This document shows positions 4,801 through 40,330 of a stretch of 64,000 bases of DNA, in pieces. Under the pieces are notes generated by a model, which ran no database searches, was not told where the DNA came from, and worked only from the letters and a program-made list of their open reading frames with translations. The first letter of the stretch is position 1, and each line of letters begins with the position of its first letter. This stretch comes from Blasia pusilla. Taxonomy: Eukaryota. Where the stretch lies: NCBI GenBank assembly GCA_050084515.1, contig CM114271.1, positions 34,162,001-34,226,000 of the forward strand, given 5' to 3'. The position numbers were made by a program, and so were the translations under genes.

Positions 4801-5600
4801 ATACCACAGCGATGCGGTTCCGCTTGGGCCTCCCCCAACCATCGGTGGTTGGTTCGACACACTGCGAGTGTCGCCGGAGCCTGGATCCACTTGGTGTGCA
4901 TTTGGCACGCTGTCCAGTTGGGGGTGAGAGGATAGCCACTCATGATGCAAAGGCGGGATATCATGTTCGATTGCTCGGGAGAGTGGCTTCCATGTGTGAG
5001 AGAGAGGCACTACTCCATGCGGGATTCCCTCATTCGTGCCGATCTCTACATGACACGTGAGGCCGAGGTGGTTGTGGCGGACGTGGTAGTCGAGATCCTC
5101 ACGCGGGAGGCAATGCGAGCCCAAGTGGTGGCCCAAGGGCGAATGCAAGGAGCAGCGGCGGCGGCGAAGAAGACACATATCTACTGATCGACTACACGAG
5201 GACACATCTTCATCCCCCGGCCATAGAGATGTATGGGGCTATGGGGGGAGAGGTTCGACTCGTTCTTACGGATGCGCCCATCATCTCCACTCGAGAAATG
5301 GGTTGTCCTTAGCTCTGCGATTCTCAGACAGGCGCTGGTCTCCATAGCGTTGCAAAGCGTGCCCAAGCTAATGGGATTTTTGCGGCGGGCTCAGTGGGAG
5401 ACGCCGGCGCTAGAGGCCCACTTAGTAGTAGTCATAGCTCTCTTGTTGTTGCTGATATTGTCTCTGCTGTTGGTGAGTTTCGTCGTTAGGGGGGGGAATG
5501 CCCCCTTCTTCCTTTTCTGGTCGTGTTGTGGCCTTCAGGTTTTGACTTTTTGAGTCCCCCTCTTTTGTACTTCCGATGGGTTTTCCATCACTCGTTTTTA
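1900..5600 (+). mobile_element. Non-LTR retrotransposon, RLE-type, CRE-like clade; decayed (frameshifts and stops); boundaries approximate
   Basis: Frameshifted C2H2 finger near 2460-2525 (CPCCPEFF...NHLAAKH). RT ORF 3034-4341 has GIRPIAIGEVLLRLV, LQVDVENAFNS, SLADDTHIVG and GLRVLGVPLG. CCHC knuckle CECRRSLDPLGVHLARC at ~4860-4915. RLE endonuclease motifs RADL..VVADV..AAAAKKTHIY. T-rich 3' end at ~5550-5600. Confidence 0.85.
3034..4341 (+). pseudogene. Reverse transcriptase domain of the CRE-like LINE (longest open fragment of a disrupted ORF)
   Basis: 435-aa ORF with non-LTR RT motifs; homology continues in other frames both upstream and downstream. Confidence 0.85.
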
Positions 5601-8600
5601 TCGAAGTGCATCTTTGTTTCCTTTCAATTACTTATTCTAATAACCCACGTTCCGAGTATTTATTTATTATGAGAGTTATGATATCCTTACTTAATCCCTA
5701 AAAGCATGGGCATTTTCTTGTCTTAGGAATAGTAGAGGAATCCTCTAGCTTCGTACAAGATCCAACCCTAGAAATAAAAAATTGGCTGCTCACATTCTGC
5801 AGTACTATCTCAAGGTTAGTTTTATGATTTCTTTTGAAATTGGCTTACATATTGAAAAACTCTGCCGTTGAGAGTTTAAGGAGCTCTAGTCACTTCGTAC
5901 TCATTTCATAACATACACTACTTTCGAATCCTCCCATTCACTCTCTCCCCAACAGTGATATTTTAAGCTTTGTGCAACTATCTACCTACTAATTTTGCAT
6001 TCATCCAATATACCTAGGTAAGAAATAGAACCAAGTTTTTTCATTTGCTAATAAAACAATGAAAAAATATTCTTACAAGTTTTAATAATCGGATTATACA
6101 TTACAAAACTTTAATATTAAAGTTAAGACACAAAGATGTCGTGAATCTTCTCCTAATAAATTCTCATCATTTCATTTGAATAAGCATGCTTAATTGCTAC
6201 ACCGTGAATGTTAAATCTTACTTAGTGATAAATGAAAAAATTACGTCTCGATCAGTTATAATAGCCTAATCATTACACTAATCTCCTTCAAGTTCGTTCA
6301 TGAGTAGTATCAAATAATTGCACCACACCTCACATAGCCTTTATACATAATATCGCCACCAAATCACAAACGATAAATAAAAAGGAAGCACGAGATTAAT
6401 TTTGGTTTAAAATCGAGCACGGTGATTGAAGCATTAAGATAATTTTTTCCAAATGTACTCACATCCTGGGCCTTCTTCAGTAAATTAATAATGGAGAAAG
6501 GCCTCCTCTCCTCTCCATTTAGCATTTAAGGAAATGGATTAATTAATCAAAAGCAGATAATAACCACTTTGGAAGTTTCTCTTCTAAAACGTTTAGTTAC
6601 TTTAGTACCCTGTAACTCTTACTCCTTGAACTGCCCTTCGCTTCGTACTGGATGGAAGTGGAGGTACCGACGTACTTACTTCCGTCGTGCACGACTTTCA
6701 TAGAGTGCCACATGATTTACGCTACACTGACTGACTGCGCAATCTTTTCGAATTCGTGGTGGAGCGCTGGAAAGATGCTTAAGGCTGTAACCGCCAATTC
6801 TTGCTTACTAATCGTATCCCGATGCGTTAATACGTCTTGATGATTGCCACATGATTAGCTCACTTGCTAAGTCACTGTAGTTAGACAAAGTTAGTTAGTC
6901 AAGTCAGTCAGTCCGTCAGTTAGTTACTACGCTTCCATCCATTTATGTATGAGTGTGGGTGTATGTATGTATGAATGATCGGCGTTGGTCCTTATCACCC
7001 CTCGCGAATTGTATTTTGACTCGGCCAATATTAATGTTGTTAACTGACGGACGGATTATTGTGGTGTCCACCGGAAAAGAAGCACGTCAAGCACGGTGGG
7101 TAGGCTCAAATAGGGCGTTTCATAATGCGGGGCGAAGGTCTCACGACGTCTTGATATTGATCTTAAGTAGAATATGAACGATTTACCATTGCATCCAAAT
7201 ACATTTAATTTTGCTACGTGCCGTATGAAATACACTTCGCAACCTAAATAGACGAGAAAATGGATTAGACGTACGGTTGTAAAAGGTGCGAGTCCACCTC
7301 CTTCGGCACTCCGCATACAACCGGACATAAATCGAAAAAAAAAATATGGATCTTATGTCTAGTGCTACGGCCTACAACTTGAGATCCCCTGACGTCGCCA
7401 ACGGTGTTTTCTGTAAACCTTTCCTATGTTTATTGGGCACGTCCCTTGGGCCAGTGCCAAGCACATATGTGCTCACTAGTCTTGGACATAGACAAATTAC
7501 TGACACCTATTTAAAAGATGTAAAAAATCCTTCACGTAATTATATAAATCAAGTTAGAAATTATGCAACATGAACTTAATCGGACGGACTAGAGGAATTG
7601 AAAATGGTTGGTTAGATGATTTATGGGTCGGCGTCCTTAAGTTTTCATAAGGGTTTCTGGATTTCTTCCGCCAAAACTTTTGGGGGGCAAGAGGTGGGCT
7701 CGTCCTCACGCCCTCCCAAATCTATTGAGAGGAAGTGAGTATGGATTGAAATACTACGTGTTCTGATGGACAATCAGTTTGTGGTTTTGGAAATAGATAA
7801 TCTGGAAGTGGTTGAAAAGTCGTCGGCGGTGTAATATCGGCTAGTGTTTCCAACCGGTAGTCTTCTTCTTGGGATCATGTGCATCCCAAGAAGTTTTCCA
7901 TAGGACCCAGCTCTAAGGGGAAGCCAAAGTACTTAGCCCCATGAGTTGTTGTCTCCCAATAGCCCGTAAAGTTTGTGGTTTGTTAGGAGGGGAGTTGGGA
8001 GTTTCTGTTGGCCGCCATATTCCATTGGTGTAGGTCTTGCTCTCATAACTCTTTTCTATGGGACAAGATCCAAAGAGAGGTATCTTACGAGAGTAACAAT
8101 GATTTGTTGTAACCCATAGAAAGGGGGATTATCTTCTTTCAAACATATTAATTTCACTTTATCACTTCCCAATAGAAGAATGTGAATAGAAACTAAAAGT
8201 GGGGAGTGGTCTGGCACCAAAACTAGACATGACATGCGGAATGATTTTTCTAGCATGATGGCATGCTAGAAGATAGACCAATATGAGGGGTCCGAATCCA
8301 TTTGGGATTAGTGGTAAAACCGTAAAGGTGGTTATTTTATATTACAAATGCAAATCACATTACTTCAGTTTTTGTTCATCATAGCTTTGAGCCTTCCCTA
8401 AATACCCAAAGGGAAGACACAGAAACTTTGGATTTGGAAATTCTTCAATCCTTATAAATATGTCAAATTTATCTTTCATTTCACATTCATAGTTTCAAAT
8501 TTTTTATTCAATTTTTAAAAAATTTAAAGAATTCGATCATCATGTCTTATTTTCATCTCTTTCCATGCAATCCATGAGGATTTCATATCTAGTTAAAACT

Positions 8601-11600
8601 TGTATATGTATTATGCGGTTATATAATGACAAGCCTCGGGAGTTTATCTTTCATCAAATTATATGGTAATGGAGTGGAAATATGGTTGCTTCCTCTCCTA
8701 GTCTATTTTGAGATTCAAAGGAAAAAAATTAGTCCCACAATCCTAATCTATGCCAATGTAAAACTTACCATTAAGATTTTTTTTCCTATGACTTGCCATA
8801 TGAAAATGATCACTACAAGGTTTTTGAAAAAATAAAATTAGTTAGCATGTGTTGGTAGATCAAGATGATCATAGGGAGTTGGAAAAAGTGGGTTTATTTC
8901 TTACCTTATGAAGGTAAGTTAATGATGTATCCACTTTAGTTTTCTCATAATTTTCATTCCTCCTTTATAGTGTCTTTGTAGATTTGGCACTAGTGTACCT
9001 AAAAGTTGTTGCTCAACTTTTACATTAGTACAAAGAGATATTTCTATTCTTTTCTTGTCTACATGGAAAAGTGAGGGCTTAGGGGACCATGTGGCATTAT
9101 AATGACAATTTTTTTGTAATGATTGCATCCTAGATTCCTAGGGAACTATTGTTTTCAAATTTAGTTACAAGGTTCCAAATTAATCACTTATGATGTTTTT
9201 AATGAATTTTTTTCCAATTGAGTAAAAATGGTTTGTCCAATGGCATTCATCCATTCTCATCACTAGATCTCCCATAATGCAACATACAAGTATTTGGGAC
9301 AAACTATTTTTTAATGAAAAGTTTGACAAGTACAAGAATATGATGGATAGCACATCATGTCTCTTTTTCTTCTTTTTTTTGGTTCAAAGCCTTAGTTTTT
9401 TTAGAGTTAATTATAAAACATCTAATATGCTACTAAAAGAAGATTTTTTTTAAAATTTTTCAATCCAAAGAATGGCTTACACATCTTTTCACGTAAGTGG
9501 AAAAGAATTGAATCAAAGGAGAATTGGATTTTAGAACGTAGATACCCTTTTCATACATGAGAAACCTTTAGGTGTCTATAAAGATATTTGGAATAAGCAC
9601 AATGCCTAGCGTAACGATATGCTAGAGACAAAAACTTCAAGCATATGCAAAACATGATGTTATTATTTCTCCTCCCACTGGGGGATTCCACATCCCTCGA
9701 AGGAAAGGGATAAGGATAAGGGATAAGTTTCTTTCCCCCAACCAACCATCCATGATAGATGATATCATCTCATCCCACACAATCAAGTAAAAAATATTTA
9801 TGTTGAGATTGCAATCGCCAATTGATCCTTGAATGGTTCCCATGATAAGAAAATGGTGTGAGGAGATGGCTGATGGATATTGTACCTTTCTTAGATTTGG
9901 TGGAAACCATTTTCAAAGTTGGAAATTAGTTTTTGGTATGAAGGATGTACTCTTTCATATGAATCATAATGTTTATTTTCAAAATCAATGCATCAATTTT
10001 AAACAATGTTTCATCCTCAGCAAACTCACTTTCTTCCAAATGACTTTGAATAGAAAGTACAAACAATTTGGGATAGCAAGTACCAACAAAGATCTGAATT
10101 CCAAATTCTGATAAGACACACAACACTACTTCGACTTTAGATGCAACAATAGATTACCTTTGGCGCTCATAATAGAGAGGGTAAGTAAGTAGATCTTTTC
10201 TATCTAATAATGAAAAGGCAATATTAATAAAGGCTATTGAGCGGTTATGGAAATTTCCTCACGGAGAATTATCACAGGGATATTCAAGTTTAGCGAGCGA
10301 GTGAGTGCATGGCCGTAGGAGACCCCGCACAGTCATTCATGCATGCATGCATATAACCGCATATATATCATGGTTAGCATGCATGCGTCTTGACATGAGC
10401 AACAAAGCCCCTCCTTTCTTTATGGCGGAGATGTCAAAGTGGCTAAAATCGGGAGTCGGGACTTGGGGTTGCCGATGCACTGCATCATCATCATCATCAT
10501 GTCAGTCTGCTCCACCTGGAAGTTTCAAGAGGGAGCCTTCCTTAGTTCCCCCCATTTGGTCGATGACTTGCAAGGGGTGTCTTGATGAGAAGAGCCAAAT
10601 GCGTTTGCCATAAGTTTGACCGTTTTTCGAATCAGCTGGGAAATTCAAACTGGACTCTGGAGGCGTTTTCTTTGTCAATTGCGACTCGCTTTCTGCGCAG
10701 ATCGGCCGCAGGGGAGCACTGCAGCGGGCAGGCTTCTCCGAAAGTGAATAGTCTTCGATTGCGGTCGCTTACTTGAATCTGGAGGAGTGAGTTTCTTGCA
10801 GAGTGAGGAAGTCTGACCTGACCGTGAATAGTGGCGGTCGTAGGGGTCGTAGCGGTGGGGGTAGCACGAGAAAGGAATTGTAATTAATGTCGAAAGCTGA
10901 ACTAGAGCATTGTGAGCACCCGAACCAAATTCCGGATCCTTTGCCAAACGAGGCAGGATTGAGTCGGAGCTGCTTCTGGCGTACACGAAGCACTTCAAAT
11001 CGCCGCACTCGGTTTGTTGCCACATCGAGCCATTCGCAGCAGAGTTGTTGCTACGATCATCCCTCCGTCGCTGTCCACGCACCCCAAATCTTTCTCTCTC
11101 TCTCTCTTCAAATATGTGGTACCCGCTTGCCCATACTCTGTGCGATACGCGCTCTCACTACATATGAGCGTCTTTTTCTCCCTCATATTGTAATTTCTTT
11201 TCTTCACATCTTCTTTCCCAGTATCCGGCACGGTCCAAAGGAGGATTTATGGTCGCGATTCGCGAGACGACGGGTTTATGGCAGTAATAAATGTCTGTCT
11301 TCAAATCAATTCTCTGCTTTCCGGGGCGTTCGTTCTCTTCAAATCCTCTCGCCTTCCCGATGCCAAATCCTTTCTCGCCTCTCCGATGCGTCCTCACCGA
11401 AACGCATAGACAGCAGGCAGACGCACGCGCAAGGCAGGTGATCGATGCTTTACGCGGTCAGTTCACCAGAGCTGATGCGTTCCTGCGAATCGCAGATCTG
11501 GAGCTCTCCTTCGGGATGAAGACGAAGCGAGAAGAAATAGAAGTGACGGACGGATGTGTTCTGATCTCATTCAAACTGTTGTGTCTGCAACACAACGCAC

Positions 11601-13168: not shown

Positions 13169-16087
13169 CTAATTTTTTACGGAAAAGGTTCTATCTTCAC
13201 TGAAGCTTCTCCGGTGATGAGCGAACGAGTCCCTCTTGGCGGTTCCCGACACTCTCCTTTGCCCCATGTAGCTGCAGTACCACTCGAAAGCGAAATTGGC
13301 ACCGCTGATCTTCTCATCCTCCACGCGAGATCGCACAGCGTGGATTTCGTTGCTGGGATCTTGCATGGGGGGCTTGTTTTCCAAGTACTCCGATCCTGAC
13401 GTTTCGCCCGATCGGTTGAAATCGCTGTCCGCCTTTTCACTTCTGCTACCGGAGGACGAGAATTTGCTGCGCCGAAGGAGCCCCAGCTTCATGAATGCTC
13501 TGCCCTTGAGGGAATTTTGAGACACGCACTTGGTGGTGTCTTCATCACAATCCGCTACTCTGTGCTTCTCCAAACATCTTCCCTTCTCCCTCGTCGGTGC
13601 CAGTGGCGCGCACCTTTCCCTGGATGCCGCGCGCCTCGACCTGCTCCGGCTCACTTCGGCGATGGAGTTGCTCAGCCGCTCGAAATCAAACGCAGCAGCG
13701 GGTGCGATCTTCAAGTTCTTCGTGGGCGTGGACGGAGGAGTCCGAGAGGATCCCATTGCATTTGTCCCTGACATCGTCTCAATTTCGAAGAGATCCGAGC
13801 TCGAGTCTCCGTCTTTGTCTTCCCTGCGCTGCCGTCTGCCGAAGCTTGGGGGTGACTTCGATCTCTTGGCACCCGCCGCGAAGCTCGCCCGCTCCAGAGA
13901 ATAGAATTTGAGCTTCTTGTTCATGCCTCGCCGTGATCTCGGCGGACAGGGAACGGCTGCCATGTGCAGCGGAGAGTGAGGACGAGAGGGGGGCATTGAG
14001 GAGAATTTCCCTGGTGAGCAAGGAAGTGATCTGCAGGGGGTGCCGGGCAGAACAATCTCATGAGCTCTTTTCGTGACTGTCTGCTCTACATCAAAAGAGA
14101 AGCTGCACCGGGCTAGCGTGATGTCATCAGAGAAGCTAATCCTCGGTGAAGCGATCTCTGAATGCGAATGCACTTGTTGGTGGTAACTTGGGCTCGGCGC
14201 AGCAGCTTCGGGGTTTGTGGGTGGGAGAGGCCATCTCCCACCGTGGTTTCTACCCGAAAATGTTCGAAGGTCGGTGATGGGTGGATCTTTCCACAGGCCC
14301 CGGGGTTCTCTAAAAGGTGAACACTCGGAGAATGACGAAGTGGGTGCGAGCAGGCAGGGGAAAGTGAAGCTGCCTTCCTGATCGGAGGAGGCATGTTCGG
14401 ATGAAGGCGAGGAATCCCCGCTGTGGAGAATGCGCGTGGTGAAGAAACCGCTGTGATTCCCAGACATCTCTGGTAACTCGACGTCGCTGAGCTCGAGGAT
14501 CTGTGGAGTGTCCCTGCTACCGTCCGGCATCCGGCTCTCCACCACGACGCATCCCACAGGAATGGGCGCCGACGACGAGTCATCTTCCTCCATGGCGTGC
14601 GTCTCCCCAGAAGGTTTCTGCTTGCATTCTTCCGCCAGCGGATTCTCGAACCATTGGCAGCCATGCTCGGAATCGCCCTTCTCCGCTGCAAGCTGCCGGT
14701 GCCTGGGATCATAAGCAACATCTCCGCGGCCGCCTCCTGCGAAAACCTGCTCGGGGCTCGTCGCCTCGTCGTCGTCGTCGTCGAGAGGCAGCGCAGTGAA
14801 GTCATCGTCCAGGTACGAAGAGCTGAAACTCGTACACGGTACGAAGTACTCGCAGGATGACTCTCCTCCGCTCCCATATCCGCCCCCTCCAGACGTGCTG
14901 GCTCTAGGTCCGACCAATGGAGTCGACCCGACCGGTTCACCTCCACTCACTCCTGTCAAAAATCCTCTGAACTCTTCCACGTCTTCGTCATCGCCATGGT
15001 CGTGCGTCAAGATTCGGCTGGCAGTCGAAGTCGCGGCAGCGGCAGCTCCCGAATGCGCCACCACCCGCACTCGAAAATCGACGAATTTGTCGACCTGATC
15101 TCCTCCTCCTACCGCTCGCTTGGCTTTCGAATAGAAAGCCTCTCTCGGCATCTCATCCGCCTGAGCTCTGACCTCCGCCTCGGCTTGGGAATGGACTAGC
15201 TCGCCTTCGGATTCCATGCAAGACCGAAGGTCGTCATCCGTATGCCCATCTTCACTCCCCGCAGCACCTCCTCCTGCCGCTGCTGCTGCTAACTGGAACC
15301 TCACTTTCTTCCTCGCGACTCGCGAGCTCTCCTTCGTGCCCGTCTCTTTGCCTGCGGCTGCAGATTTCCTCCTCTGGCGTCTCCGGGCCTTGGCTCGAGC
15401 TTGGACCGCGTTGAGCACGGAATCGAACCGATCATTCGCAGCCCGATAGTTGTCGTTGTCGACGGGCTTGTCGATTGTGCTGGAAGGGACTTCCCAGTCT
15501 TCTGACTTTCGAAGATGCTCATCCCACTCTTCAGACTCACCGCTCCTGGCGTAGTCGTCGTCCACATCCCCCGTGTCCTCGGGCGCCACTTTCGCAGGGC
15601 TGGCCGAGAAGCTCTGGGATACGTCGTTCTCCTCCAGGAACACAAAAGCGTCCCGAGCCGCAGCTTTTGCAGCCGACTCCGCATAGGATTTAGCGACGGC
15701 TTCCATGGCGTGCACGTCGAAACCCTTGAGAAGAGGGGATGAAAGGTAAGATGCGAAAGAGAAGTCGCCGGTGCACATTTGGTTGACATGGTGTACCCGA
15801 TTCCTCCCGCTGACACCTCCCAAGAACATCTCTAGCGGGCTGATGTAGTTGTACGACGTATCCCTCGACCTGCTCACCCTCTTGTAGAACAGAGACCCGA
15901 GAGCTCCCAGATCTCCGACATCAGCTGAAATTCTCGGAGTGTCGAGGCCGAAACTGTAACGCCCACTGGGATTGGGGCTCTCGTACTGCGAGCTCGCAGC
16001 TTCGGGGGTGCAGAATCCGTCATCCTCGCAATGGGAATGGCCGTGACCTCCTTTCGACAAGCAAACACCCATCTCGACAATCCCCAA
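13169..16087 (-). CDS. Intronless 972-aa largely disordered protein with PHYTOCHROME KINASE SUBSTRATE / BIG GRAIN-like motifs; probable true start at the MGVCLSK Met about 5 codons downstream
   Basis: Long uninterrupted GC-rich ORF. Contains FSFASYLS and DGDSSSDLFEIE, resembling PKS/BG1 conserved motifs, and an N-terminal MGxCxSK acylation-type signal. Confidence 0.7.
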   Translation of the reverse strand: MGIVEMGVCLSKGGHGHSHCEDDGFCTPEAASSQYESPNPSGRYSFGLDTPRISADVGDLGALGSLFYKRVSRSRDTSYNYISPLEMFLGGVSGRNRVHHVNQMCTGDFSFASYLSSPLLKGFDVHAMEAVAKSYAESAAKAAARDAFVFLEENDVSQSFSASPAKVAPEDTGDVDDDYARSGESEEWDEHLRKSEDWEVPSSTIDKPVDNDNYRAANDRFDSVLNAVQARAKARRRQRRKSAAAGKETGTKESSRVARKKVRFQLAAAAAGGGAAGSEDGHTDDDLRSCMESEGELVHSQAEAEVRAQADEMPREAFYSKAKRAVGGGDQVDKFVDFRVRVVAHSGAAAAATSTASRILTHDHGDDEDVEEFRGFLTGVSGGEPVGSTPLVGPRASTSGGGGYGSGGESSCEYFVPCTSFSSSYLDDDFTALPLDDDDDEATSPEQVFAGGGRGDVAYDPRHRQLAAEKGDSEHGCQWFENPLAEECKQKPSGETHAMEEDDSSSAPIPVGCVVVESRMPDGSRDTPQILELSDVELPEMSGNHSGFFTTRILHSGDSSPSSEHASSDQEGSFTFPCLLAPTSSFSECSPFREPRGLWKDPPITDLRTFSGRNHGGRWPLPPTNPEAAAPSPSYHQQVHSHSEIASPRISFSDDITLARCSFSFDVEQTVTKRAHEIVLPGTPCRSLPCSPGKFSSMPPSRPHSPLHMAAVPCPPRSRRGMNKKLKFYSLERASFAAGAKRSKSPPSFGRRQRREDKDGDSSSDLFEIETMSGTNAMGSSRTPPSTPTKNLKIAPAAAFDFERLSNSIAEVSRSRSRRAASRERCAPLAPTREKGRCLEKHRVADCDEDTTKCVSQNSLKGRAFMKLGLLRRSKFSSSGSRSEKADSDFNRSGETSGSEYLENKPPMQDPSNEIHAVRSRVEDEKISGANFAFEWYCSYMGQRRVSGTAKRDSFAHHRRSFSEDRTFSVKN

Positions 16088-17127
16088 TTGACGCTTCTCT
16101 CCGCGTTCACATGAAATATGTCAACACCTCCGATTGCTCCCTCGCCTCATCGATCATTCACGATGCCGTACTCTTGCCGTTGTCCCATTGAGTCCTCGCA
16201 AACCCGCATTCGCCCCTCCCGACCTCCACACCATAGTGCTGCAAGTGTCCACAGCTTCTCGTATCCCTTCACATCGGGACATGTCCGAAACCCATCGCGC
16301 ACGAACATTACCTCTGCCACGGCCTCTGCTTCGGTACGGCGATCACTCCTTGCGACTTCGCTTTCTCTCCACTCTTCTACTCTTGCAGCCCAGACCCCCC
16401 GGGTCGAGCAGCCTCGTGAACTTGTTCGTGCACGGGACTCGCCTCTTGGCTAGAGCACAGCACGCAGCAGTGCACCAGCGCAGGCAGGGTTAGATCAAAC
16501 AAAAGCAGCTTGGAATGAAGCGGCAGGCAGAGACTATGGATGCCCACCCACATGTGCTGTTATCTGTTCCCGGCCCTACCTAAAGCAAAAGGAGCTCCTC
16601 CGCAACCCCACCCAGCCTACCTCACACTTCCTCCCCTACTCCGCACTCATACCACTGCCACTTCGGCTGCCGATGCGCTTTCTATCGAGACACTTCGCCC
16701 CTCGTTCCCCGCCCCTCCACCATTTTCGCTGCGCCGCTTCTGAGATTAGCCCCAGAAAAGAAGAACCCCGATGTCTACCGACTCCGTCACTGCTGCTGTC
16801 CGCTAGTCCCTGTATAAATACTGAAACGTACGTATATTGATACGCAGGCGAGCGAGCGAGGAATCGCGCGAATCGACCGCAGCTGCCATCGAATCGCATC
16901 ACTCCAAAAAGTATTCGTATACACACTGTAGAAGGATCGATCGTGTGCCCGTCATCCTCCTCCCCTTCGCACAGAAGAGAAGAAGGTCTCGTCTCCGACC
17001 GGGAGAGGCGAGCGAGCCAGGGAAGGAACGAACGAACGCCCATCGCCTCGTCTTCCGTCTAGACCGTTGTTCACAGCGCAGGCATTCACTGCACGCCACC
17101 GGATGACTGAATCACTCGATCCGCTCT

Positions 17128-31944: not shown

Positions 31945-32150
31945 TTCATAAATTTGTACACCTTCATTGTTTGGACAAATACGAATGCGACAATGTTTTA
32001 AAATTAAAACTTAAAACATGATATATGTATGTTTTTCACAATCATATAAATTTTGACACCTTCGTTGTTTGGAAAAATATGAATGCGACAATATTTTAAA
32101 CTTGAAGTTTAAAACACCATCTACATATGGTTTTCATCATCATATGTATA
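31945..32150 (+). repeat. Local tandem duplication of a ~98-bp unit
   Basis: caccttc.ttgtttgga.aaata.gaatgcgacaat.ttttaaa occurs twice. Confidence 0.7.
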
Positions 32151-32407
32151 TTTTTTTATGTTGGAATTTGGAACCCATACACATGCACTCCTTACTGGGC
32201 ACATATATACCAAAAATCTGCCCGTATACAACACCAATTTTAGCCCGTCTCAATTCCCAAATGTTCCATCCAAATGAAAGGAGGATGAAAGAGAAGATAT
32301 TTATATCATTATATTTATCATTATCAATGTGTGGAGAATTTCATCTTTGAGTCGTCTACGCACTTTGGAATAATCTATATTATTACGAGAGAACGTCTTT
32401 TTGATTT

Positions 32408-32544
32408 TGTCGTGCGCATACATATTGCTACACAACATACATCGCTCGTCACATCTACACCACACAACACCGATCTTCCCCACACACGGTAGATCCACAC
32501 ATGTACAAAAATCAACTCATACATATACATGGAGATCACAAAAC
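32408..32544 (-). repeat. Terminal repeat B2 (3' end of the element)
   Basis: Near-identical to 33027-33164. Confidence 0.9.
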
Positions 32545-33024
32545 AAAAATAAAGAGTTGTAAAAATGGCACACCCGGCCTAAAACTCCACTCCTCAATCT
32601 ACATCGGCATATCGAGCCTCGTCCACCCTGTGCTATCAAGGAATCCGGACGCTAGCACCCTAGTCCTAGCTCACACACATACAAGGGAGGTGCTCCAACG
32701 GCCGAACATGAGAAAGATGGCTTAGGAAAACCATCTTCCTCTCTTATATAGGGTTGGGAAGAGCCAAAAGGCTTTTCCCCTAAAAATAGCCCTTCCCTTG
32801 GTAACCTGTGCGCACAGGTTACCAGGGGCGGGTGACCTGGTCAACAAGTCACCCGACTGTAAAAGACCTCAACATGAAAGTTGTCAGGAACGACGTTCTT
32901 GACACAATGGACCTATCCTCAACCTCATCCGACACTGTGGGACAAAATTACACTCAAGATAGTCCGCTGGATCCTACGCCCTATCCACGATAGATCTCGG
33001 CCTATCAGTTACTCGGATGTGACA
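32545..33024 (-). repeat. Repeat A2 (LTR-like, TATA-containing)
   Basis: Near-identical to 39220-39660 apart from two indels and scattered substitutions. Confidence 0.9.
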
Positions 33025-33026
33025 GT

Positions 33027-33164
33027 TGTCGTGCGCATACATATCGCTACACAACATACATCGCTTGTCACATCTACACCACACAACACCGATCTTCCCC
33101 ACACACGGGTCGATCCACACATGTACAAAAATCAACTCATACATATACATGGAGATCACACAAC
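33027..33164 (-). repeat. Internal repeat B1, joined to A2 by a 2-nt spacer
   Basis: Plus strand reads ...GTGACA-gt-TGTCGT... at 33019-33032; near-identical to 32408-32544. Confidence 0.9.
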
Positions 33165-33240
33165 CGACCCCCTAGCTGGCAGTTGGATCCCCCTAACTCC
33201 AGATAGAAAATATCACATCTCTCTGACATGACCTACTACC

Positions 33241-34554
33241 CTATACACATCTCGGACACATCCATCGTCCTGTGGGAACCACATCAAGAGGGGGGGTCAG
33301 ACATGACATATGCCACCCTCGAGAACAACCATCACATACCAACATGGTGGTTGCACCCCTCGCAAATCTGCACAACATACACCTTAAGCCTACAAGTACC
33401 ACTGCCAAGCTTGGATCCACCGTCCCATCTACGTTCGGAAGATGACATGGCGCACAATTGCGCACATGATCCTTCCAAACCATACCATCCCGTCCCTCCA
33501 ACATGAGGACTCCGGTCGGTAATACCTCACGCACACGTAGGATCGTACGCCCTGTTGTAACATCTAGCGTCGTAGGTGTCGCCTGCTGTAAATACACGTA
33601 ATCTCCAGGATGAAACCTCCTAATCCTTGGACGATAACCTCCTCCACGAATAGTCGCGTACCTCAATGTATCTCTATGCTGGGCAATAGCTAAGTTCTCA
33701 AAGGCCATAGGCATAACTCTACAAAAAACTTCTGCCCTCTGAGAACATGCTTGTACCCACACATTTGGATCATGAATATCTAACACCTCCGCCATGTCAC
33801 GTCGAATCGCTGCAGGTAAATCTGGCTCTCTCCCAAAGAGCAAAAAGTATGGTGAAAATGACGCCAAGGATGCCTGCCGACTAAAGCGATAACCCATAGC
33901 CAACCATGGCAACTGTAGGTCCCACTCCCTCAACTGTCCCCGCTGCAAGCCATACTTGCGCAATCCTCTCTCCACCGTTTGTACCACTCTCTCCGCCAAC
34001 CCATCCGCCTCAGGATGATCTCTAGACGTGGTGCGGTGATCTATCAACGCCTGATCACACAAGGCCTGAAACTCTCCCCTGAACTCGGTACCCTGGTCAG
34101 TCAACACCTCCGCCGGTGCACCAAAGTGACTAAGCACACGATCTAGAAACGCATAAGCCGTTCCTCGCCGCCTTTGTGTCGGTAGTGCCACCAACTCTAT
34201 CCACTTGGAGAAATGCTCCACCATGACCAACATGTACCTATGATGACGCCCTGTCAATGGCAAAGGTCCCGCAAAGTCTAAACTCCACCGATAACCTAAA
34301 CCCATAATCAGCAAAGGATGTAACTGCGGAGTGGGAGCATTGAAGGATGCTCACACTCTGTCACATACCATACATCTGGCCACAAACTGCTGTACCCCAG
34401 TATGCATGCCGTGCCACCAATACTGAACCTGGAGTAAACTGTAAGTACGCTTTATTCCAAAATGTCCCAACTCCTCATGGGCCTGTCGCACTACACGTGC
34501 TCGCTGGGAAGGATGACGTACCACTCGTATCCTACCATCTCCCCATACCCGCAA
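33241..34554 (-). pseudogene. DDE integrase with N-terminal HHCC finger and C-terminal PHD finger
   Basis: AHEELGHFG..CMVC; SLDFAG, LTDQG, ADGLAERVV; C-terminal CMLC..CDGC..H..C..W.CPRC (Cys4-His-Cys3). Interrupted near 34350. Confidence 0.92.
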
Positions 34555-34868
34555 AATGTGAGTCCCCTCCCACCTGAACCTCTTGGCTCTCTGTAGGATC
34601 CGATCCCGCTCCTAGCACTCCTTTGTACTCGCAATGACGCCGCGGTGAGCAAGAACTCCACAACCTCCACGTCGTCATGGATATCACGACCACCTGTCGC
34701 CTCCTCACTAACCTCCGGATCCAAAGACTCATCATCCAATCCCACCACTGGAGTCATCACCTGTGGATGACCTGCCATAGTCAACCAACAAAGATAGGCA
34801 TATGCATGCCAACCGGGCACCATCTCCTCATCACTCTCTCCGTGCCATCGAGCTCCTGTGTCGTCTCT

Positions 34869-35291
34869 CTAACTCGGACATGGGTTACGACTCAACCCAT
34901 CCGCATCCTGGTTCAGCCGACCTGGCCTATGAACCACCTCAAACTCATACTCCAGTAGTAATAGAGCCCACCTGGCAAGCTTTCCTGTGAGCTTCTCGGA
35001 CTCCATCAACCACCTCAACGGCTGATGATCAGTGATAAGTGTGAAAGGGTTGACGAATAAATAGCACCTAAAATGTGCCACAACCCACACTGCAGCCAAG
35101 CACTCTCCCTCGTAGGAGCTGTACTTTGCCTCTGCAATGTTGTTCGATCGGCTCGCGTAAGCCACAACGAACTCCCTCTCCTCGTCATCCCTCTGAGTAA
35201 GCACTGCTCCTAGACCCAACATGCTCAAATCCGTATGTAACTGGAATGGGCGACCCCTAACCGGTCTCTGTAAAATGGGTGAGGACGTCAA
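34869..35291 (-). pseudogene. RNase H domain (Ty3/gypsy type)
   Basis: FQLHTD.S..GLGAVL, VVAYASR, YSSYEGECLA, LITDHQPL, ADGLSR. Confidence 0.92.
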
Positions 35292-35306
35292 CCTGTCCTT
35301 GAGCTC

Positions 35307-36321
35307 CTAAAATGCTCGCTCCTGATAATCTCCCCACAACCAAACCTGATCAAGTCTCGTCAACAAGGTCAAAGACTTTGCGATTGCACTAAAACCCTTG
35401 ACATACCGTCGATAGAAGTTCGCCAGTCCAAGAAATGCTCGGACTCGACTCACATCTGTAGGGCGTGGAATCTGCGCAATAGCCTCTACCTTCGTCTGCT
35501 GAACGCCTAACCCACTCGGGTATATGGTGTGTCCCAAGTACTCAATCTGCTCCTGAAAGAATTTGCACTTTCCTAGATGTAACTTCAGTCCATGTAACTG
35601 CAATCGCCGAAACACCTCCTCCAAGTGTCGCTCATGCTCCTCAACCGTGGAACTGAAGATAAGAATATCATCTATGTAACATCGTACAAAATCCAAGCCA
35701 GCCAGAATCCTATCCATAACTCTCTGAAACTCCGCAAGCGCGTTCTTCAATCCAAATGGTAAGAACCGCCATCGATACAAGCAATCTCTCCCGAACCGAT
35801 CTATCCCCAGAATCGTGTCTTCTCCTGTCCTCCAACTCCGATAGGAAGGCGATGATAGCCAAAGCACGGAGATCTAAAGTACTGAAGATCTTTGCATGCC
35901 CTACTGCATCAAAGATCTCCTCAGGAGTAGGCATGGCATACCGATCTGACCTCGTTTGATGGTTGATAGGACAATAATCTCCACACATCCGCCTATCCAT
36001 CCAATTTCCATACATATCCTTCTTCGCCGGCATGACCGTGGTAGATGCATACTCCCCATGTGATAACTCCACAAGTCCTGCCTCCAACAAGTCCCGACTC
36101 TTGCTCTGAATCAAGGCTCGCTCCATATCAGAATACCTGTAGGGTCGACGAAAGATCGGCGTATCACTAGCCAACTCAATCTGTATCCTAGGACCCTTCA
36201 GCGTACCCAAGTCTCTCATACTGAAGGCAAAACAACTGACATGCCCTCTCAGAAACCTATGAACTCGCCGTTGCTCTCCTCCTATCAACTTGGGACCTAT
36301 CATAGGCTCCCAAGTCTCCAT
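35307..36321 (-). pseudogene. Reverse transcriptase (Ty3/gypsy type), frameshifted
   Basis: RRMCGDY..IN, FSTLDL, LPFGLKNA..FQRVMD, CYIDDILIFS, IEYLGH, FLGLANFYRRYV. Confidence 0.93.
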
Positions 36322-36619
36322 CGTGACCTCACTCGGAGAGGACGCAACCTCCGACTTTGGTTGCTATGTAGCAACCCTAGCCACCTCTACAACAGCCACT
36401 CCACTCTGACTTCCTACACCATGCTCCACATCCGAAAAATGAACATGTGCTACTCTAGCCGCCTTCATGATCTCTCTTTCGAACGACGCCCTAGGAAGTC
36501 CATGGGTGCCTATCTCTCTCGTCTCGCTTGACCAATGCATGTCAGACCACTTGAGGCAATGGTCCAACTCGTGGACGTGACGGCATGGATGACACTTGCA
36601 TCTGTCTCAGCTCAGCCAT

Positions 36620-37573
36620 ACCTAGGCTGACTATCCATGTGAGACAGTTGAGGTCCATCGCCTGCCCCAACACCTCTCTTCGTGATGCCTCAGTCATCCA
36701 TGGCACCGCCGTAGTACCGGTGGTGAACCCCATGGCGCGCTCGCGCTCATCTGCTGTAGGCTCCTCCAATACTCCGGTCACCTCATCCCAAATCATGCAT
36801 GGCCCTTCCTGATGAAAGGCATGGGATGTTGGGAAGCTCACCAACGTAGGTAAGGCTGCCCTCAACTCCCCCACCCTATTGGCCATGGCCAACGGTGGTC
36901 TATCATCCCGTGTCGCCACCTGAGATCGACGCCCTGAGCCCAAAATAGCATCCACTGTGAGATGTGGTGCTCTCTGGACTCCATTGTAGGCTTGACTTAG
37001 TACCTCTGATGATATCAGGTTCGTCCACCACAGTCGTGGACGATGGGCACGTGACCCAACTCTCGCTGCATCTAACAACACAGCAGGTCCCAACCAGGAC
37101 CTCACGTGATGTACACTCGTCATCACACGTACACGAGTGTCTCCCAACAACGGCACGTTCTCCAAAATGTACGCTGGAGAACATATCTGACTCTCCTGCA
37201 AATGTCGTACTACTCGCAACATCTCCCAAAACATCCCTCACCTCGGATCCTGCAATCCAAATCCTCGGCCAATTGATGAATGACCATGACATGACCATCC
37301 AGCAATCACCAAATGAATGGTGCCAACTCTATCCAGATACTGTGCCCCCACCAAAGAGATGTCGGCGGGTAGCGTATGCTGGTATCCCCGTACTGCAGAT
37401 ACCGACAACAACTCAAGATACCTCTGGACCAATCTCGCCACGTGACGTAATGATACTCGCAGCGCGGTCTCATCTCTCTCCACATAAAGGTACTGATGCA
37501 CCCGTATGCCCGCCTGCAATATGGTAGCCAATCCGGTGCTAATCCCTCCGAAGAGATCTAACACCCTAACACC
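36620..37573 (-). pseudogene. DNMT3-like C5-cytosine DNA methyltransferase domain inside the retrotransposon pol (one in-frame stop at 37238-37240)
   Basis: Motif I VRVLDLFGGISTG; II YVERD; IV LVIAGWSCHGHS; VI YILENV; VIII HRPRLWWTN; IX ERERAMGF; X RREVLGQAMD. Linear I-X order as in DNMT3, not the permuted DRM order. Confidence 0.9.
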
Positions 37574-37959
37574 CTCCTCTGGGCACTGCCACACAACAGG
37601 TGTGGTATCTAGTGGGGTCATCGTCTCCACTCCAAGAGCCCGATCGCCACGTGACTCTCGCTGCTCTGGGATAAAAACATGACTCCACGCGTGCCTCACG
37701 AGGTTGTTGACACTCTTTTGTAGCTCCCGAGTTGTACCCCACAATGGTGAAGAGGCCTCGCCAACATGGGAAGAGATGGGATGAGACCCGCCATGGCCTG
37801 TCTCTCCGTGGGACATACCGCTACTGGGACATCCTCTGCATGTGCGTTCCCCTCCAACAACTCTCCTGGCCAGCTAACACTACATGTGAAAGCCGCCAAC
37901 GTGGTCACAGACTCGCCTCGTGATCGACCACCTCGTCCCGCAAACTGCAGGGGTAACTG

Positions 37960-38400
37960 ACTCATCCGGCCGTCACCTGACCGCCATCCTGGCCGATAAG
38001 CAACGGTCTCCTCCCAGAAGTCAAGGATGAATCCTAGGGAATATAACATTGTACTCCCCACCAACACATCGTACGACTCAGCTGGTGTCCGTCGCATGCT
38101 ATGGCTGGACTCTGACAAAAATATCTTGTCGAATCATATACTGAGTGAGTGATACGCCCCCAATCGAGGTATGTATCTGGAAGGGACAAGGCTCAATGTC
38201 GGCCTTCTGTAACCCCAACGCTAAACACGCCCCCTTCCCTAACATCAAGGGTTGCGCTCCCGAATCAAGTAGGACGCGCTGCGGGTGGTATATCGTCCCC
38301 GTTGGACTAACCAAGCGAAATACTCCAGATCGGTTATCCAGTAACACTACTCCAGGTGTCACCACTGCTCGCTCTATGGCCGGTCGAGCTGGCATATCTA
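37960..38400 (-). pseudogene. Retropepsin aspartic protease domain, frameshifted
   Basis: RVLLDSGAQPLMLG active-site motif, then YDVLVG..L...GFILDF in the next frame. Confidence 0.8.
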
Positions 38401-39205
38401 CCAACTTTGCCGCCGCCGCATGCCATGACTCTGTGGGGAACGTCCCAAGCACCGGCTCTGAGGGCAAGTCCACCACCTCCTGAACTACCTCTGAACAAGA
38501 AGTAGTCATCTCTCCACGCTCATACAACGTGGCGGCCAACCGGAACACCTCAGATGGTCCAACTCCCAACGTCGCCAACTCTATGGTGGAAAATAGCAGA
38601 GTCTGACTCACTCTAGTGGCCACCTCCAACACTATAGTCGAAACTGACTCCACTCAAGCCGGCATAGGAGTTGTCACTCCAACTCCTCGTGACGTCGACG
38701 TAGGTGCCTGAATTGTAGGCACCGCTGGTCGTCGAGGCACCATCGATGGTGTGTGTAGTGCCTCCGACAATGTGAACGACTGTGGAACCCTGGCCTGCCG
38801 CCCATCGGTCCCCTCTGGTGGATCAATCTCAACTCCACCTCTCGATGGCTCCTGACTCCGTGGTCCTCCAGTCCTTGTCCGTGACCTAACCCTAGACCGG
38901 CCCCGACCTAGCTAGCCGTCTTTACTTAACAGCCCCCCGGTGGCTGCAAGACCCAAACTTTCCTTTCTTCTCTCTCTCGACACCCTCACTTGCGTACACG
39001 CGACGCCCCACCACACACTACACTCAGCTGCTGTCCCCCATCAATCCGCACCAGCAAAATCTGAGAAAAACGGACAGCGCTTCCGCCCACGGCCTTCCGA
39101 ACAGAAAAATGACACACAAAATGTCACACACACGTCTCCAGGGGCTCCCGACCAAGGCAACTCGCTTGCCTACCTGCAAACATTGAATTCCCACCAGCCC
39201 CCTGA

Positions 39206-39219
39206 CATCTTTCTCATGT
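39206..39219 (-). promoter_or_regulatory. Putative self-priming primer-binding site (ACATGAGAAAGATG) immediately downstream of repeat A1
   Basis: Perfect 14-bp complement of 39381-39394, which begins about 32 nt downstream of the minus-strand TATATAA. Confidence 0.7.
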
Positions 39220-39660
39220 AAAAATAAAGAGTAGTAAAAACGGCACACCCGGTCTAAAATTCGACTTCTCAATCTACATCGGCATATCGAGCCTCGTCCA
39301 CCCTGTGCTATCAAGGAATCCGGACGCTAGCACCCTAGTCCTAGCTCACACACATACAAGGGAGGTGCTCCAACGGCCCAACATGAGAAAGATGGCTTAG
39401 GAAAGCCATCTTCCTCTCTTATATAGGCCCTAAAAATAGCCCTTCCCTTGGTAACTGCGCACCCCGGGTGACCTGGTCAACAAGTCATCCGGCTGTAAAA
39501 GACCTCAACATGAAAGTTGTCAGGAACGACATTCTTGACACAATGGATCTATCCTCAACCTCATCCGACACTGTGGGACAAAATTACACTCAAGATAGTC
39601 CGCTGGCTCCTACGCCCTATCCACGATAGATCTCGGCCTATCGGCTACTCAGATGTGACA
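39220..39660 (-). repeat. Repeat A1 (5' LTR-like end) with TATATAA box at ~39419-39425
   Basis: Matches 32545-33024; begins TGTCAC on the minus strand. Confidence 0.9.
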
Positions 39661-39810
39661 ATTTGCAAACACCTCTCTAATTGAAAAATGAATAACAATA
39701 AAATATTTCACATATTACGGACAACAAATTTTTTTAAATTTAAAATGATATATTAATCTTTTTTATTTCCCGCGTATGGTAGTTGCATCTTACTCGTCAT
39801 CCTTTCATTA

Positions 39811-40330
39811 GCGGATGTTGTAGTGATGGATCCTACGCCGGAGGCGGTGCGAGCCCAAGTGGTAACACAAGAGAGATTGCTACAAAGAGCGGCGGCGGTC
39901 AAGAAGACCCACATTTATAGTCGACTTCATGATGAACATCGATTTATCCCCCTAGCTATTGAGATGTACGGGGCGATGGGGGAGAGGTTTGACTCGTTCC
40001 TTACGGATTGCGCCCATCATCTCCAGTCGAGAAATGGGTTGTCCTTAGCCACTGGGATACTTTATTGTAGGCAACGGGTCTCCATAGCTTTGCAGCGCGG
40101 CTAGGCAAATGGGCCTGCGGCAGGCTCAGGCGGTTGGAGACGCCAACGCTAGAGCCCACTTAGTAGTAGTCATAGTTCTCTAGGTGTTGCTAATATGATC
40201 TCTGCTGTTGGTGATTTTGGTCATTGGGGGAAGGCCCCCTTCTTTCTCCTCGGAGCCGGTTCTAACTTCCTGAGGTCTATTTTTTGGTTCTCTATCATTT
40301 GTATCGCGATGGGTTTTCTTCATATATTTT
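39811..40330 (+). mobile_element. 5'-truncated 3' fragment of the same CRE-like LINE family (RLE C-terminus and 3' UTR)
   Basis: Aligns by eye with ~5077-5590; encodes AAAVKKTHIY..HRFIPLAIEMYGAMGERFDSFL..RQRVSIALQRG. Confidence 0.85.

Follow-up and report, generated by a model that had tools for sequence, protein, structure and literature searches.

A predicted DNMT3-type cytosine methyltransferase domain in a dead Ty3/gypsy-like retrotransposon copy of Blasia pusilla and in its green-lineage relatives

A 64,000-nucleotide stretch of Blasia pusilla DNA (assembly GCA_050084515.1, contig CM114271.1, positions 34,162,001 to 34,226,000 of the forward strand; hereafter the window, in whose numbering all coordinates are given) contains a Ty3/gypsy-like retrotransposon of 7,253 bp on the minus strand (39660..32408), bounded by a 4-bp target-site duplication (TSD), AAAT, and carrying a domain of the cytosine methyltransferase type between its protease (PR) and its reverse transcriptase (RT). 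This is very probably the DNMT domain of a dead, gag-less copy from a large green-lineage family which encodes a DNMT3-type methyltransferase as a regular and selected part of its polyprotein, and whose active copies would work as proposed below.

Identity of the methyltransferase domain

A first-pass annotation, made from the letters of this DNA alone, had quoted motifs I, IV, VI, VIII, IX and X of a C5 cytosine methyltransferase. All six were recovered at the place it had given, in linear order and in a single reading frame of the minus strand (Table 1), with LGQAMD likewise standing at the motif X end of this order. The domain is flanked by the protease motif LLDSGAQ and the RT motif YIDD, has no introns and lies on the strand of pol, as had been proposed. 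Search against Pfam yielded a significant PF00145 match (E 3.2e-5, 24 bits versus a cut-off of 22), which covered only the stretch from motif IV to motif VI, and full-length relatives scored 32–51 bits with the same profile. In a phmmer search of PDB sequences, 29 distinct DNMT3A/3B/3C sequences came first (E 1.2e-8 to 2.1e-4), the next-ranked matches being of the M.HhaI type with E values of at least 0.77. When a profile of the family was used instead, DNMT3 (8e-26) ranked above DRM (5e-11), M.HhaI (7e-7) and DNMT2 (2e-5), and no match to DNMT1 or CMT was obtained in PDB at E<=1. An AlphaFold model of the domain, built from a 15-row alignment, reached a pLDDT of 87.5 and a pTM of 0.88. Among the Foldseek matches listed for this model (33, at ranks 1–49) all were DNMT3A/3B/3C chains, the best being 6f57_D (E 1.9e-17, TM 0.71/0.82), and identity to the human DNMT3 enzymes in the structure comparison was about 20%. 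As the Pfam match, the PDB sequence and profile matches, the model and the Foldseek search all agreed, the DNMT3 likeness put forward by the first-pass annotation was confirmed by sequence and predicted fold, and the domain is here described as a putative DNMT3-type C5 cytosine methyltransferase.

Host DNMT3 enzymes (animal DNMT3A/B/C, and plant enzymes such as PpDNMT3b as presented in the text of PMC6453930) share the catalytic fold and the motif order of the window domain, and the animal enzymes gave its best sequence and structure matches. Unlike them, the window domain is embedded in a Gag-PR polyprotein, with the protease and the RT as neighbors, and lacks an N-terminal region of PWWP, ADD or land-plant DUF type; no such Pfam domain was found in the window element or in the scanned relatives.

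Distribution, selection and phylogeny of the family

Homologues of the domain were retrieved from a large protein collection, 102 of similar length and 48 longer. The nearest, at 64–68% identity, came from Calypogeia fissa, Marchantia polymorpha, Sphagnum and unnamed metagenome records, and the more distant ones (32–47%) included Closterium and Cymbomonas; Riccia was also among the homologues, and Monoraphidium and Haematococcus were added by a profile search. No match named as Klebsormidium appeared in the homologue and profile searches of the protein collection, the entries of the cluster library carrying no names. Against 1.84 billion cluster representatives, an exhaustive search with the profile produced 14,262 matches at E<=1e-3, of which 3,150 reached E<=1e-10 and 605 reached E<=1e-30; E was below 1e-85 for each of the best 150, many of them polyproteins of 1,000–3,400 aa. 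Pfam scans of full-length relatives identified the DNMT alongside a zinc knuckle, protease, RT, RNase H (RH), integrase (INT) and a PHD finger, and polyproteins of Marchantia, Closterium and others combined the DNMT with RT, RNase H and integrase. The first-pass annotation had allowed for the case that other copies lack the domain. It was found at the same place, DNMT followed by RT, in 49 metagenome loci, and in the polyproteins of several genera. Motifs I, VI, VIII, IX and X, as well as the catalytic Cys, were kept across 59 relatives with a near-complete domain.

Copies were also compared at the codon level, as the first-pass annotation had envisaged. Between the window and 23 close metagenome loci, the proportion of nonsynonymous differences (pN) was 0.21–0.26 and that of synonymous differences (pS) 0.68–0.77, with synonymous sites saturated, and the ratio of the corresponding rates (dN/dS) was 0.08–0.17 in the 19 pairs with a computable dS. 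Because pN was low against a saturated pS and dN/dS did not exceed 0.17, the comparison shows a codon pattern indicative of the DNMT domain having been under long-term purifying selection.

The position of the DNMT within the polyprotein was not the same in all relatives. Among 334 stored proteins, the DNMT precedes RT or RNase H in 21, which is the arrangement of the window, and comes after RT or RNase H in 121, mostly in the order RT-RH-DNMT-INT-PHD and in 114 cases with no RT or RNase H downstream; 27 showed only DNMT-INT(-PHD), 164 the domain alone and one an odd arrangement. A quick maximum-likelihood tree was constructed with IQ-TREE, with SH-aLRT as its only support measure, from the window domain and 82 of the 246 proteins having a domain of at least 280 aa, 164 being left out (all named and all type I rows were taken, plus a random 25 of the 'DNMT only' rows and 35 of the type II rows). 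In this tree of 83 domains the two layouts split into two clades (SH-aLRT 100), and the window fell in a 16-row clade (SH-aLRT 99) together with Marchantia and Calypogeia sequences. Judging from this sampling, the position of the DNMT in the polyprotein appears to define two clades.

Several records deserve a separate comment. Proteins P0017 and P0310 are labeled at their source as belonging to bacterial metagenome-assembled genomes (Obscuribacterales and Minisyncoccia), yet they are pieces of Gypsy-DNMT polyproteins nested among eukaryotic sequences in the tree, and are likely eukaryotic contigs binned into those genomes. Two metagenome loci of the distant clade contain long direct repeats, namely L058 (1-3492 / 6557-10048, 99.97% over 3,492 nt) and L066 (1-824 / 825-1648, 100% over 824 nt), the latter also with an open frame of 3,329 aa; these repeats could be tandem elements or assembly artefacts.

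Coding organization and the conserved stop codon

DNMT and RT were in the same frame in 37 of the 49 related loci, and in 29 loci a stop codon after the DNMT was placed at an identical codon (TAG in 20, TAA in 9). These 29 were chosen by eye as those in which the first stop past the DNMT comes just before the RT match, the other 20 having an earlier stop or a frame change. Of the 26 close-clade loci, 25 have CAA as the next codon; in L033 and L034 the stop precedes CAG TTA. The intact state is illustrated by L034, in which an open reading frame (ORF) of 1,369 aa with protease and DNMT ends at a single TAG and is followed in the same frame by a 1,047-aa ORF holding RVT_1, RNase H, H2C2, rve and PHD. 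In addition, Marchantia proteins of the ORF1 type (1,150–1,330 aa) end about 74 residues past the DNMT. These loci show, at the level of predicted frames, a family layout in which gag(CCHC)-PR-DNMT forms ORF1, a conserved TAG or TAA stands in a leaky-type context, and RT-RH-INT-PHD follows in the same frame as ORF2. The first-pass annotation had placed the domain inside pol; its position between PR and RT was right, but members of the family have it as the C-terminal part of ORF1, upstream of the conserved stop, and not as a segment of one continuous pol.

The type I readthrough motif of plant viruses is UAG-CAR-YYA, with UAG-CAA-UUA in tobamoviruses, as given in the text of PMC3542737. The six bases after the family stop fit this motif or nearly so: TAG CAA CCA of the window and TAG CAG TTA of L033 and L034 agree with CAR-YYA of the tobamovirus type, while most close relatives have CCC as the second triplet. 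The arrangement resembles the tobamovirus and gammaretroviral gag-pol readthrough described there in having an in-frame UAG between an abundant upstream product and the polymerase, and differs from the gammaretroviral case, whose stop lies between gag and protease, in that the stop follows the protease and the DNMT. Gag-PR-DNMT would thus be the main product of the family, with RT-RH-INT-PHD reached by readthrough.

Decay of the Blasia copy

The dipeptide at motif IV of the window copy is Ser-Cys instead of Pro-Cys, the catalytic Cys itself being kept. The first-pass annotation had noted this as a PC motif reading SC. That it is a departure held with respect to close relatives, since Pro precedes the catalytic Cys in 30 of the 30 rows of the two nearer clades having that position; it did not hold for the distant clade, in which 18 of 26 rows have another residue there (P 8, E 11, S 7). 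Its description of the domain as broken by one in-frame TGA was likewise correct for the domain, 18 codons past Ser-Cys, at an alignment column where 54 of the 56 relatives with a residue have Ser and the other two Gly and Ala. However, the copy as a whole carries further stops and frame changes and has no gag.

The absence of gag was evidenced by tblastn with the 957-aa ORF1 of locus L001, which aligned over residues 521-906 only. Its residues 1-520, including the CCHC knuckle at 387-403, had no counterpart in the window, where about 350 nt remain between the repeat A1 and the protease region. In addition, a stop was found in the protease region (38654-38656), and frame changes were located near 38088-38101 and near 37783-37873 in the PR-DNMT linker region, where residues 807-906 of L001 aligned in another frame (38088-37783). 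The DNMT-RT linker contains a TGA (36542-36544), and the frame shifts at a point between 36542 and 36606. The window RT sits in the +1 frame relative to the DNMT, and further frame changes occur in the RT (about 35710-35873) and before the integrase (about 34491-34611). Because gag is missing, the DNMT has an internal TGA and its motif IV Pro is replaced by Ser, and there are several stops and frame changes besides, the window copy is dead and incapable of any function proposed here for the family.

Element map and termini

The domain order PR-RT-RH-INT with a DDE integrase is that of Ty3/gypsy elements (Table 1). The protease of the window copy gave no Pfam match and was located by its motif, its relatives L034 and P0118 matching Asp_protease_2 / gag-asp_proteas. 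The PHD finger at the integrase C-terminus has CHD4, PHF12, KDM5A/B (PHD1), PHF21A, DPF3 and AIRE among its nearest solved chains, and several of these are readers of unmodified H3K4. Chromoviruses are Gypsy elements whose integrase bears a C-terminal chromodomain; the present element similarly has a chromatin-reader module fused to the integrase C-terminus, which is a PHD finger and not a chromodomain.

Table 1. Features of the Ty3/gypsy-like element of the window, in the order in which they are read on the minus strand.
Feature	Position	Strand	Evidence or remark
Target-site duplication AAAT, 5' side	39661..39664	(-)	...gcAAAT then TGTCAC; same 4 bases beyond the 3' terminus
Terminal repeat A1, 441 nt, begins TGTCAC	39220..39660	(-)	Identity to A2 95-96%; indels of 13 and 25 nt
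TATA-like cctatataag within A1	~39418-39427		
Short leader, gag missing	38870..39219	(-)	tblastn of L001 ORF1
Protease region, LLDSGAQ 38252-38272	38099..38869	(-)	Motif; Pfam matches of relatives
PR-DNMT linker, two frame changes	37592..38098	(-)	tblastn alignment and frame stops
DNMT3-like C5 cytosine methyltransferase domain (putative)	36599..37591	(-)	331 codons; Pfam, PDB, profile, model and motif evidence
Motif I, VRVLDLFGGISTG	37532-37570	(-)	LFGGISTG
Motif IV stretch, IAGWSC	37289-37306	(-)	
Ser codon TCA replacing motif IV Pro	37292..37294	(-)	Catalytic Cys codon next, so Cys kept
In-frame TGA between motifs IV and VI	37238..37240	(-)	18 codons past Ser-Cys
Motif VI, ILENV	37154-37168	(-)	
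Motif VIII, HRPRLWWTN	37019-37045	(-)	
Motif IX, ERERAMGF	36725-36748	(-)	
Motif X, RREVLGQ	36662-36682	(-)	
DNMT-RT linker	36367..36598	(-)	Stop, frame change
Position-conserved stop TAG, then CAA CCA	36364..36366	(-)	Fits UAG-CAR-YYA
Reverse transcriptase, YIDD 35667-35678, one frame change	35307..36363	(-)	RVT_1 4.3e-23
RNase H	34869..35306	(-)	RT_RNaseH 4.7e-34
Integrase: H2C2 zinc domain (ORF 34351-34611) and DDE core (~34012-34293)	34012..34611	(-)	Integrase_H2C2 5.7e-17, rve 6.6e-15
PHD finger, integrase C-terminus	33244..33381	(-)	PHD 1.3e-10; ORF stop TAG at 33241-33243
Polypurine-like tract agctaggggg	33165..33176	(-)	Directly upstream of B1
Internal repeat B1, 138 nt, ends GACA	33027..33164	(-)	2-nt spacer AC at 33025-33026
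Repeat A2, 480 nt, begins TGTCAC	32545..33024	(-)	Repeat comparison
Terminal repeat B2, 137 nt, ends GACA, 3' end of the element	32408..32544	(-)	Repeat comparison
Target-site duplication AAAT, 3' side	32404..32407	(-)	Sequence

The window element is not bounded by two identical long terminal repeats (LTRs), as ordinary Ty3/gypsy elements are, but has a layout A1..B1-A2-B2, in which the repeat B is present on both sides of A2 and missing after A1. Among 35 related loci of at least 7 kb, both the A and the B pairs were detected in L048, L070, L038 and L039, and the B pair alone in L013, L059 and L035. Since other related loci show the same repeat pairs, the split-repeat layout is not an accident of the window copy. 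The two-base spacer between B1 and A2 is AC in the window, GC in L048 and L013, and AT in L059 and L070, and a TAGGGGG(G) tract stands directly before B1 in the six elements examined (window, L048, L070, L013, L059 and L038). The element ends are of the TG...CA type (TGTC...GACA), and 4-bp TSDs were found in the three elements with both ends readable (AAAT in the window, AAGG in L048, AATC in L070). No tyrosine recombinase was matched by Pfam in the window element or the scanned relatives, rve and Integrase_H2C2 being found instead.

PAT, Ngaro and DIRS-type elements are not known to make a TSD. The A1-B1-A2-B2 layout, known as split direct repeats, was defined for PAT and Ngaro elements in the text of PMC4157794, and the window element agrees with these and with DIRS-type elements in having it and in that its internal repeats lie downstream of the final ORF. 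However, those elements use a tyrosine recombinase, whereas the integrase of the present one is a DDE enzyme of the rve type, its ends are of the TG...CA type and its TSDs are 4 bp long. Inside the element, the GACA-NN-TGTC junction is similar to the LTR-LTR junction of a circle, and the integrated form may derive from a circular or junction-bearing DNA intermediate that the integrase would open at GACA-NN-TGTC.

Read joints linking 33158-33164 to 39211-39222 and 32541 to 39220 were considered as deleted forms of the element and rejected: with A1 and A2 nearly identical, the ordinary A-B junction maps across both and gives such joints. At B1 (33019-33168), the match of many RNA reads is confined to 33019-33063, with unlike sequence continuing on either side, and some reads skip 33064-33167; for this reason, expressed relatives differ in the B repeat. 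Just to the left of the element, at 31948-32143, there are two tandem AT-rich units of 98 nt, 82% identical.

Abundance and transcription in the source organism

Contigs of two DNA runs piled up over the whole element at a likeness of at least 90%. Word depth in the X2 DNA contigs was 1,264–8,887 over the bins of the element versus 0.56–2.7 in two unique bins of the left flank, such depth not being equal to copy number. Reads of two RNA-seq runs from 2026 had their first mate on the plus strand in nearly all cases, which in most stranded libraries corresponds to minus-strand, that is, sense RNA, at depths of 0.2–37 per bin over the element. They were mostly 90–95% alike to the window copy (926 of 1,180 and 1,143 of 1,423 reads), with only 11 and 2 reads at 99% or above, and therefore come from other copies. 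The family thus appears abundant and sense-transcribed in the source organism.

The right flank (39627-40228), which includes an ORF at 39757-40104 (+), had strong RNA coverage in the opposite orientation (depth 24–135, with first mates on the minus strand); the element seems to have inserted there into a repeated sequence that is transcribed. In 5+5 RNA reads and one DNA contig, 32392 is joined to 39661. This joint resembles a paralogous site without the element and would be consistent with the 5' boundary, its sides of only 18–24 letters being too short to rely on. Elsewhere in the window, an open frame of 983 aa (13169-16120, minus strand) lies in a GC-rich stretch of about 58% GC and gave no Pfam, PDB-sequence or ESM Atlas match, and a 452-aa open frame (2983-4341, plus strand) with a weak RVT_1 match (E 4.3e-9) is probably another retroelement.

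Proposed function and comparison with known systems

In the active copies of this family, most ribosomes would stop after the DNMT and give Gag-PR-DNMT, and a minority would read through and add RT-RH-INT-PHD. The protease would release the DNMT from Gag-PR-DNMT, and the enzyme may then methylate the new cDNA of the element or a fresh insertion, and possibly nearby host DNA, while the PHD finger on the integrase might steer integration towards a particular histone H3 state. By analogy with the argument made for DIRS elements in the Discussion of de Mendoza et al. (2018; PMC5890265), we favor the element's own cDNA or new insertion as the probable target.

The closest known system is KnitGypsy-Dnmt3 of Klebsormidium nitens. 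According to the text of that paper (PMC5890265), it is a Gypsy polyprotein with an intronless, non-rearranged DNMT3-type domain under purifying selection, acquired 'in the K. nitens lineage', present in few copies and silent, with CHG and CHH methylation. The window element agrees with it in having an intronless, non-rearranged DNMT3-like domain in a Gypsy polyprotein, selected in its family. The legend of Fig. 4c of the same paper gives KnitGypsy-Dnmt3 a DIRS-type repeat structure with Gypsy-like domains, which by description matches the A1..B1-A2-B2 layout. In contrast, the host range of the present family spans liverworts, mosses, Zygnematophyceae and chlorophytes, and the main text of the paper has no mention of a leaky stop, TSDs, a GACA-NN-TGTC junction or a PHD finger (the term 'PHD' does not occur in it). 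The same source describes two other retrotransposon-borne cytosine methyltransferases, SymbioDIRS-Dnmt3 and SymbioLINE-Dnmt of Symbiodiniaceae, the former DNMT3-derived and methylating CG in yeast; these belong to a tyrosine-recombinase DIRS element and a LINE, respectively, in another host lineage, whereas the element described here has a DDE integrase.

In open-access full texts, figures and supplements excepted, Gypsy-DNMT3 elements were found described in no land plant, none of six Marchantia gene identifiers was found mentioned, and split direct repeats were found reported for no Gypsy element. This is in line with the remark of the first-pass annotation on the lack of good descriptions from land plants, the only report found being that on Klebsormidium (PMC5890265) together with papers citing it, of which later ones refer to it for 'streptophytes' (PMC12344493; preprint 10.64898/2026.05.21.726589). 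With respect to the published description found, the present analysis adds that the DNMT is placed in ORF1 before a conserved stop in a leaky-type context, that split repeats occur together with TSDs and a DDE integrase, and that the architecture falls into two clades.

Some observations weigh against the proposed organization and function. The sixth base after the stop is C in most close loci (CCC), and not the A of CAR-YYA. The split-repeat pattern was not detected in 28 of the 35 loci of at least 7 kb, many of these contigs ending inside the element or being degraded copies, and L038 and L039 had no TGTC...GACA at their BLAST boundaries. By eye, no tRNA primer-binding site was recognized after A1, where the sequence ACATGAGAAAG... 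does not start with TGG. RNA depth was lowest over the DNMT bins (0.33–4). Finally, a stop-free DNMT was found in only 3 of the 23 close-clade metagenome copies, and the median dN/dS among the close copies themselves was 0.48, so most of the sampled close copies are decaying.

The DNMT could alternatively serve mainly self-silencing, to the long-term benefit of the host or the element, marking new copies for heterochromatin and keeping copy number tolerable; neither cDNA protection nor mimicry of host methylation would then be its role. The presence of readers of unmodified H3K4 among the solved chains nearest to the PHD finger would agree with self-silencing. The idea is raised in the Discussion of PMC5890265, in the text of which the copies of KnitGypsy-Dnmt3 are methylated and silent. 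We nevertheless consider it unlikely, the family appearing very abundant and sense-transcribed in the source organism, unlike what effective self-limitation would give.

A conserved domain that does not methylate DNA, either a pseudo-enzyme with a structural or binding role or an enzyme acting on RNA as proposed for SymbioLINE-Dnmt, is quite improbable. Across the wider family, as seen in the distant clade, the position ahead of the catalytic Cys varies, and RNA methylation is discussed in the text of PMC5890265 for the LINE-borne DNMT, which failed to methylate DNA in yeast. However, the clade of the window keeps PCQ at motif IV, ENV, RxR and the residues of motifs IX and X, and the nearest structures are those of de novo DNA methyltransferases, with DNMT2 far lower (2e-5 versus 8e-26). 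The capture of a host DNMT3 gene or pseudogene fragment by this single Gypsy copy, with no role in the biology of the element, can be practically dismissed despite the degraded copy and its interrupted DNMT, since the same domain, position, linker and conserved stop recur in the 49 related loci and in polyproteins of several genera, neither introns nor a separate TSD accompany the domain, and dN/dS between lineages is about 0.1.

The preferred reading remains that of a regular, selected methyltransferase of the family. A broader proposal, on which we are more tentative and which is rather doubtful as a whole, would have this as an undescribed, green-lineage-wide Gypsy-like group that jointly produces a DNMT3-type enzyme at Gag-level stoichiometry before a tobamovirus-type leaky stop, integrates by a DDE mechanism from a circular or junction-bearing intermediate leaving A1..B1-NN-A2-B2 and 4-bp TSDs, and is numerous and transcribed enough in bryophytes, Marchantia included, to contribute to host de novo methylation.

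Plants silence their transposons mainly by cytosine methylation, and a transposon family bringing its own de novo methyltransferase would invert the logic of this silencing. The sole described Gypsy case comes from one charophyte alga with few copies, whereas the present family appears abundant and transcribed in its source organism. The conserved stop in its leaky-type context, and the co-occurrence of split repeats and a DDE integrase, bear on the variation of expression ratios and integration intermediates among retroelements. As close relatives occur in annotated genomes from Marchantia, Calypogeia and Sphagnum, the first of which is open to genetic work, it is now directly testable what the enzyme targets, whether it protects or silences the element, and whether such elements may shape the methylomes of their hosts.

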